This document shows positions 34,984 to 37,127 of a DNA stretch of 64,000 bases, piece after piece. The position numbers and the translations under genes are program-made. The notes beneath the pieces were generated by a model. That model saw only the letters and a program-made list of their open reading frames with translations. It did no database searches and had not been told where the DNA came from. The DNA is from Aplysia californica. Its lineage: Eukaryota. How positions within the stretch are numbered: the first letter of the stretch is position 1; every line of letters begins with the position of its first letter. The stretch spans positions 191,860 through 255,859 of the forward strand of contig NW_004797618.1 of the NCBI RefSeq assembly GCF_000002075.1, given 5' to 3'.

Positions 34984-36775
34984 TTTTCATTTTACAAAGC
35001 CACAGCAGGCACAGCAGACTTAGAGAATAATTGCCATGTTTCGGATTACATTTGTCTTCAGCTTTTCATAGTTTTGCAGAACTTGCTCCTTCCAGATGGG
35101 CATGGCCAACTCTGGACCATTTAGTTGACTCAGCACCAAGCTCTGAGGGGAAGATCCAACACACTTACTTTGAAATGATTTTGCTATACAACTATAATTC
35201 AGAAAGGGTAAGCCATTATTTTAAATTTATGTATCACGAAATATCACATTCACTGTAATATCATCATATATCATATCTTGTGCTATGAATCTAGAACCTG
35301 TCATGTTCTTTTGCAGCTCTCATCACTACAGTAGAACAGGGTTCACCTTTTCAGGCCAATTAAGAGGTTCTTTCATCCCTTGGATTTCTATCTTAACGGG
35401 TATTAAAACTCTTGTTTTAGAAACTTTAATCTCCTAATTTGATGGTAAGAAATTTGCCTGTAAACATTTAACTCACACGCACATTCACACACACACAGAG
35501 TGACCATGACTATGATTGAATGCTAACGATTTTTGATTAACTGTAAGGTTTCATTGTAACAACAAGAAATAAATGAGTAATATTGACTAGAATTAGAGTA
35601 GTGTCCACTTGGAAAGGGGGGGTGGGGTGGTGGTTGGGCAAATCAAAAGTAAAATAAAGTTGGCAAACCATAAGGGGTCAATTCTGACTGTAATACACAC
35701 AAAAAATAAACTGATTCATTATTCTTCAGAGCCATCTCAGGGTTCACATTCCAGTCTTTCCAGAATTTCGATTTTTTCCCCCTCGTGAAAATCTCACAAG
35801 CCTCCTGGATCACTTCCTTTTCACCAAATGAAAATGCCTGCTCATGCATGCTTTCATGCCAAATGATCAGTTTGTTTTTTTACAGTATTTGTGGTCAGTG
35901 AACTACTGAGTGCTGTATTTCTGATACAGACAAAAGGTGACTGCCGTGTATCATATGTGTGAGTGTGTTGTCAAATCATTGACTCTGCTTGGGGATAGAG
36001 AAGGGGTAAAAAGAGGTTTGCCAGACAAAATTTTAAAGAGTAACGCTCACGCACCACCAAAACTGAAAGGGTTTAAAGCGTAATATACGCACATCTGTGC
36101 CTAATGGGCAGCCCTGGTAGAACATGGCTACACTGGGACTTTTGGTTCCAGAAGAAAAATCCCGCAGTAGGCAAGTTTCCGCTATAGGAATGTGAAGGAA
36201 AATTACTGAAAAAATTCTGAAATCCACATGATTACCTCCCTTCCATATCAGATGATATCAATAAAATTTGCGCTTTTGATAGATTAGTCTTCCTTTTCTC
36301 GTCAATTTCGTTGATTATCTCAGCCTTTAATTTGAGTAAGAAGCATTTCCTTCTGTCTTTGTTGGAAGCCATCTTTTCCTCGGTCTTGTTGCTTGTGCTG
36401 TCTATAAAAAAAATATTGTACCGGAAGGCCTACTGTAGAACTGGTAAAGTGGATGTGTGCATAATATGCCTGAGCATCACACGGCTGTTCAGTTCTACTA
36501 TCCTTGCGGAGCACTAAAACCCGTCCGCTTACCTCCCGGGGTCATAAATCCCACCTGACAGTCGGGCCGCGCATCACTTCCAGGGCAATAGCGCTGTTAA
36601 CCGATTTCGGTTAGAAAGTCTGTAATTTTCACTTGATTTAGACCCCTGTAAATGTCCCGTCTTATCTATCACTATGGGTGTGTGAGGTATCAAATGAAAG
36701 CTCAGATTCTCCGAAATAACCCGCATCCTTTAGTTTGGTTCTAGTTCTAATCCTGTACACACACTGCCTCTGTAC

Positions 36776-36809
36776 CACAGAATTCTACACTTAAGTGTAG
36801 AATTCTGTG
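36776..36809. mobile_element. 34-bp perfect palindrome with 8-bp TSD (probable P-element-like excision footprint)
   Basis: CACAGAATTCTACACTT|AAGTGTAGAATTCTGTG flanked by CTCTGTAC at 36768-36775 and 36810-36817. Confidence 0.75.
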
Positions 36810-37127
36810 CTCTGTACTTAACCCTACCTTGTGGTGCAAGTATTATTCGGAATCCTCCAAAATCAGGATTTTTTTTCTCCCATTCCTGAACTACAGATTG
36901 TAACCAGTTTTTTATCTGCTGTATTAAGAGCCAGTAAGGAGGTTATTTGTGAAAAAAATTGTTTTGATTGGTTGAAAAACTTTAGCAGGACGGCCAGTTT
37001 TGTTGCTTCACCCCGTAATATTTTCCCGGCCGCCACGCTGCCCGTACGGCATTCATCGGAGGTCCCGCTTTCACTTTCTGGGATTCTGTGTCGACAAGTG
37101 TTATAAGAGTCTGCTACCAGAGTGAAA

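Follow-up and report, generated by a model that had tools for sequence, protein, structure and literature searches.

A palindrome in the Aplysia californica genome as a probable excision scar of a P-superfamily transposon

How did a perfect palindrome framed by two identical octamers arise within an Aplysia californica repeat, and what does it tell about the enzyme involved? In the analyzed stretch of 64,000 nucleotides (hereinafter, the window), the octamer CTCTGTAC immediately precedes and, exactly repeated, immediately follows a perfect 17+17-bp palindrome with CA...TG ends at positions 36776–36809 (Table 1), as the initial sequence-only reading had described it. We conclude that this 34-mer is almost certainly an excision scar of a P-superfamily transposon.

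The palindrome and its target site

The probability of a palindrome with 17-bp arms in 64 kb, calculated from the window composition, is about 1e-5, and the 8-bp match adds a further factor of 2.5e-5; the role of chance alone in the origin of the palindrome and the duplication is negligible. The surrounding interspersed repeat, about 2.2 kb long, is 75–90% identical to its paralogues and has a 12-bp subterminal inverted repeat (36506–36517 and 38666–38677); it is the sequence into which a P element had inserted. As all 29 examined paralogues (some with a substitution) hold the octamer once and have no insert, the 8-bp duplication is a true target-site duplication (TSD), and hence 34 bp and one 8-bp copy were gained at the window site. 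The same 42 bases are skipped at this site in public contigs from runs X1 and X6, which may represent an allele or a paralogue. In reads, where the flank is a repeat, no allele with a full element at the window site was seen among the matches listed. In paralogue C394, an insert of 541 bp close to this site was considered and rejected as an unrelated element without the terminal inverted repeat (TIR) of the family described below.

Table 1. Features of the scar and its surroundings in the window
Feature	Position	Strand	Basis
Left copy of the 8-bp target-site duplication	36768..36775	+	sequence; single copy in 29/29 empty paralogues
Left stub, bases 1–17 of the family-1 TIR	36776..36792	+	identity to ends of the parent and long copies
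Right stub, TIR bases 1–17 on the other strand	36793..36809	-	sequence comparison
Right copy of the 8-bp target-site duplication	36810..36817	+	sequence; empty paralogues
Host interspersed repeat (right end approximate)	36480..38690	.	paralogue comparison

Other features of the window are a long zinc carboxypeptidase exon (34264–34986, minus strand; Pfam Peptidase_M14, E 3e-21), the start of which resembles a signal peptide and which has the scar about 1.8 kb upstream; a tandem array of palindromic units at 39250–39470, with a perfect 52-bp palindrome at 39334–39385; and a perfect palindromic run of (CTAGAT)n hexamers at 220–278.

The parent transposon and the population of scars

The 17-nt arm has 1,425 exact matches in the genome, compared to none for the reversed control. 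Among 20 ten-kb stretches around P-transposase matches, only one, L108, contains both ends of this family (family 1), forming a 4,955-bp element (L108:2448–7402) with exact TIRs at both ends. The left stub of the window scar is identical to both these ends and to those of long copies L046–L058. In the L108 gene, a phase-2 intron separates a short THAP exon from an open exon of 855 aa, and the gene product matches five Pfam families above the cut-off, namely THAP, Tnp_P_element, RNase H N, RNase H C and the GTP-binding domain, which together present the P-superfamily architecture (THAP, HTH, and RNase H split by a GTP-binding insertion). In the alignment with the fly transposase 6P5A, all three catalytic residues (D230, D303, E531) are identical, as are all eight residues of the GTP site (K385, K400, V401, S409, F443, D444, N447, D528) as listed in a review (PMC7776569). 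L108 is therefore predicted to encode an intact THAP/RNase H/GTP-binding transposase, and the initial assignment to the P superfamily holds. A hAT parent, named in the sequence-only reading as an outcome that would speak against it, did not appear, the only coding parent found in the stretches around P-transposase matches being P-type. The flanks of L108 do not match, that is, it has no TSD.

Longer elements with the same TIR, anticipated together with a THAP-P transposase, were found as well. Eighty-three of the 100 matches listed (of 262) are exact ends of one type, which gives about 200 long, non-autonomous copies. The non-coding elements are 1.2–3.4 kb long and approximately 87–97% alike in aligned blocks (13 end pairs); the family-1 TIR comprises 23 bp if perfect and about 31 bp if imperfect. 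The TSD is perfect in ten of 13 long copies, has one mismatch in one, and is unmatched in two. Both parent ends share a 15-nt subterminal word, at bases 44–58 and 55–69, respectively, and these words are predicted to be internal transposase-binding sites. The RNase H family of P transposases has 83 matches in the genome, with several open frames of 700–890 aa, and by this measure many P lineages are present in A. californica. The 5' leader of the transposase-bearing parent itself contains an old scar of 22 bp flanked by a TSD of its own (L108:7223–7244), also seen in a second copy (L233:818; 93–96% identical).

Moreover, there are about 500 units in which two TIR tips are joined directly. At 424 sites at least 16 nt are retained per side, and the exact 34-mer is found at 65 sites. 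Among 100 of 500 matches listed, 53 are exact 33-mers and 11 exact 34-mers, yielding an estimate of about 260 33-mers; thus, the 33-mer is four to five times commoner. A peak at up to 17 bp per side was initially expected; the commonest scar is 33 rather than 34 bp long, and the range of junctions favors 18 over 17, although not decisively. Shorter joins, listed in full (96 rows, 69 sites), comprise 17+15 and 17+13 (15 each), 18+13 (8), 16+15 and 16+13 (5 each), 16+16 (4), 15+15 and 15+13 (3 each), 18+14 (1) and 17+14 (none), as well as ten joins with inserts or changes. Longer scars hold inserts copied from the TIR itself. Scar lengths range from 22 to 45 bp, with many junction types, and subterminal words are absent.

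In a sample of 69 scars with flanks, biased to rare lengths, the TSD is perfect in 62, has one mismatch in four and is missing in three, and 67 targets are different. The TSD pairs differ at 0.76% of bases, in line with the recent activity proposed at the outset. The target bias G-T-n-n-n-n-A-C is common to the parent ends and scars, and at two host-repeat sites different copies have different junctions. The scars retain nothing but TIR tips between intact TSD copies, and their end-joining junctions belong to the classes described for fly P excision (PMC2895639). In several deleted elements, one end is full and the other is a stub of 15–18 nt joined to mapped interior sequence, as would be expected of aborted gap repair. 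As the targets are different, the junctions vary, and templated insertions and aborted gap repair are observed, the tip-to-tip units are excision scars and not a mini-element, the window scar being a young one among them. The footprint claim is thus upheld.

The excess of scars over long copies (about 2:1), the fact that the 33-mer alone accounts for more than half of them, and the individual TSD of each could also be explained if the 33- and 34-mers were a tiny self-inserting mobile element, a MITE consisting only of TIRs. We consider this highly improbable, given that junctions are of dozens of types, including templated inserts, and differ even at one site, that stubs may be one-sided, that the predicted subterminal binding sites are absent from scars, and that two more families show the same pattern. 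A uniform 34-mer lacking a longer parent, the second outcome initially named as adverse, is likewise not what the genome contains.

The assignment of all 2,082 short TIR-like units to scars was rejected, as most of them are one 43–46-bp unit with identical flanks inside another repeat. This unit has family-1 tips and an imperfect TSD with two mismatches (e.g., L031–L044), occurs at very roughly 1,500 places, and may be a single old scar that contains a templated insert and has spread as a passenger; it has been left out of all scar counts.

No unique locus was seen both as a full element and as a scar in different individuals. Single loci have more complex structures: a 36-bp scar within a 33-bp scar (L230:5117), and a long element followed by two tandem scars with the same target sequence (L229:2564–2623). 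In one tandem-repeat family (L054, L228, L230, L259), full elements and 34-mer scars occupy the same 8-bp target in different arrays, which may reflect a hot spot or an amplified insertion.

These data suggest the following scenario. The 34-mer is made of both outermost tips of a P-superfamily (THAP9-like) transposon with an intact parent elsewhere in the genome. By analogy with the fly mechanism, the transposase would bind the subterminal sites and make two cuts, one in the transferred strand at the tip and one in the opposite strand within the TIR, leaving a 3' single-stranded TIR tail on each flank. Direct joining of the tails would use the terminal TA in the 34-mer and an overlap of 3 nt, with T opposite T at its center, in the commonest scar, the 33-mer; in other scars it would follow trimming or short templated synthesis. 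Repair that copies a sister element and then aborts would produce an element with an internal deletion, in which one end is full and the other is reduced to a 15–18-nt stub. Scars should be immobile, as they have no subterminal sites.

Zebrafish and Ciona are known to have P-like elements. The closest named homologue of the L108 transposase is a THAP9-like protein from Elysia marginata (P0005), approximately 40% identical over 98% of the query and having the same domains; we know of no element ends or activity for it. Zebrafish Pdre2/zfTHAP9 is a non-insect P-like element that also has TIRs, an 8-bp TSD and deleted copies, although its TIR is 13 bp, unlike that of family 1; its excision has been shown, while the available part of the report gives no cut position and states that forward transposition was not detected (PMC10983969). 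The Drosophila melanogaster P element shares with family 1 a transposase of the THAP-HTH-RNase H-GTP-binding type, identical in its catalytic and GTP-site residues (PMC7776569), a TIR of about 31 bp (23 perfect), the 8-bp TSD, CA...TG ends and unevenly placed subterminal words, as well as TIR-tip scars, microhomology joins, templated insertions and internally deleted derivatives (PMC2895639). On the contrary, the family-1 transposase is distant in sequence (E 1e-27 to 6P5A), scars have built up to about 500 genomic copies, and an overlap with a mismatch, of 3 nt (or 1 nt), dominates. A literature search of sources other than subscription journals and Repbase yielded no description of such scars beyond Drosophila.

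Depth of the cut in family 1

The depth of the cut was read from the repair products in scars. Since TIR bases 17–18 are TA, the 34-mer reads equally well as a blunt 17+17 join or as 18+18 on 2-nt microhomology; in the window, base 36793 is also compatible with TIR base 18 of the left stub, and base 36792, with that of the right one, the central TA being possible microhomology. Similarly, the 33-mer can be read as 17+16 or as an overlap of 3 nt in which both 3' ends are paired and flank a T-T mismatch. The fly P transposase makes a 17-nt staggered cut (PMC7776569), and donor sites after fly P excision are mostly joined by microhomology (PMC2895639). In family 1 we favor a depth of 18, with a likely tail of 18 nt compared to 17 in the fly, and the window scar would then probably be an end-joining product of a long staggered cut of that depth.

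At this depth, two top classes, comprising about 70% of scars, have paired 3' termini. Base 18 is retained in joins 18+13 (eight), 18+14 (one) and 18+5 (two). The ratio of TTA+C to TT+C is 7:9 one-sided (p 0.06 under a depth of 17) and 20:39 overall (p 0.05), both from hand counts in 100 of 119 matches listed, and the TTA+C excess has p 0.0003 once two microhomology classes (36-mer and 22-mer) are dropped. Against 18 speak the 15 joins each of 17+15 and 17+13 versus the single 18+14, the absence of an 18+18 join among 100 of 262 matches listed, 17+CT+17 with a clean end at base 17 in 17 of 100 matches listed (of 135), and three mapped blunt joins stopping at base 17. The 28-mer, expected to be favored if the depth is 18, is only about as common as the 30-mer (three in 100 of 500 matches listed versus 15 genome-wide), an equivocal outcome. 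A depth of 18 also requires the loss of a base from about half of the informative ends.

The same clean ends would follow directly if family 1 is cut 17 nt deep as in the fly, the 34-mer being 17+17 without overlap and the 33-mer having a one-base T-T overlap. The series 17+17 (65), 17+16 (about 260), 17+15 (15) and 17+13 (15), where one end is always 17, the 17+CT+17 class and the blunt joins at base 17 agree with a 17-nt cut, under which family 2 described below would cut at 18 or 19. We regard it as unlikely, albeit worth serious consideration: about 70% of scars would have been joined without a Watson-Crick pair despite available paired registers, at variance with the mainly microhomology-based fly joins; about a dozen 18+j joins would each need an added A; the analogous product of family 2 points to 19; and the inner copy in family 2 is one base further in than that in family 1.

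Stubs ending at 17 and at 18 are both common in unambiguous joins, as they would be if the enzyme cut at both positions or if trimming were too frequent for the depth to be read, but retention drops sharply past 18 in family 1 (base 19 is kept in 11 non-parent joins, contigs C1–C192) and past 19 in family 2 (0/27), making a mixed cut improbable. As these 11 are the only non-parent joins keeping base 19 in contigs C1–C192, a depth of at least 19 in family 1 is disfavored too. Simple independent trimming was rejected by reasoning, as it fits neither 17 nor 18 and cannot produce the large excess of 33-mers over 34-mers with only four 16+16 joins. Hence, of the cleavage geometry initially suggested to be conserved outside insects, the long stagger stands, while its exact length of 17 nt is probably not conserved: the 34-mer can also be 18+18, and a sister family keeps 18–19 nt.

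Sister families and the inner copy

Family 2 (L110, L111, L308) comprises elements of 5.0–5.2 kb with an 8-bp TSD and a P frame of 891 aa, which shares 42% identity with family 1 and has the same Pfam domains above the cut-off. It has left 27 scars, and a perfect TSD with different flanks was observed in all 12 checked. Twelve of the 27 scars need base 18 or 19 and none keeps base 20; if derived from 17-nt tails, these 12 would require inserted bases matching TIR bases 18–19 by chance. In L303, exactly 19 nt are kept, followed by an intact TSD. The commonest family-2 scar is a 35-mer, the counterpart of the family-1 33-mer with tails one base longer. The scars of family 2 thus need a depth of at least 18, and likely 19. 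Contigs aligned to a family-2 scar yielded no readable new junction types.

Family 3 (L117, L119) has unequal ends, and its fragment contains three P-family Pfam domains. In its one scar, a single event, 21–23 nt of the long end are kept, and the cut at this end is likely over 20 nt deep. When 1.16 Mb of DNA was scanned for scars left by further families, only L302 was found. At least one P family in the genome departs from 17, and the depth likely differs by family, being about 18 in family 1, 19 in family 2 and more than 20 at the long end in family 3. What appears to be new here is the presence of three P families with seemingly intact parent enzymes in one repair background. Different stub limits under one repair machinery separate the geometry of the enzyme and ends from host repair, and co-residence of the families allows for a direct swap experiment. 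The approximately 500 scars, in turn, are a natural record of a non-model germline joining long incompatible 3' tails.

A fold-back of the transferred strand, which pairs it with the 5' part of the opposite strand, is present in the fly structure (PMC7776569). Each end studied here has an inner stretch able to pair in this way, with the best offsets of 16 (family 1), 17 (family 2) and 19/22 (family 3); the fly P end, printed to 23 nt in PMC11368186, has offset 15 at the known depth of 17. A tentative possibility, which we hold as less than even, is that the depth is programmed by each end, an inner copy of terminal bases 3–8 setting the cut at offset + 2; this copy would be needed for the fold-back helix of the transpososome. 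The inner-copy runs are only 5–6 nt long (shuffle p 0.006–0.42 per end), a run of the same length is found at offset 22 in one family-1 end, and the rule fails for one variant family-3 end, which has no inner copy (p 0.91). The rule gives 17 for the fly, and the predicted depths of 18 (family 1), 19 (family 2) and 21/24 (family 3) are in line with the scars. If the rule is true, the geometry of cleavage could be read directly from the scar archives of genomes.

The two long open transposase frames, which have young copies, are candidates for a native gene-transfer tool in A. californica. At one family-2 scar (L266:1501–1535), run X1 contains both a filled contig and an empty one with a 43-base skip, and this scar is likely heterozygous.
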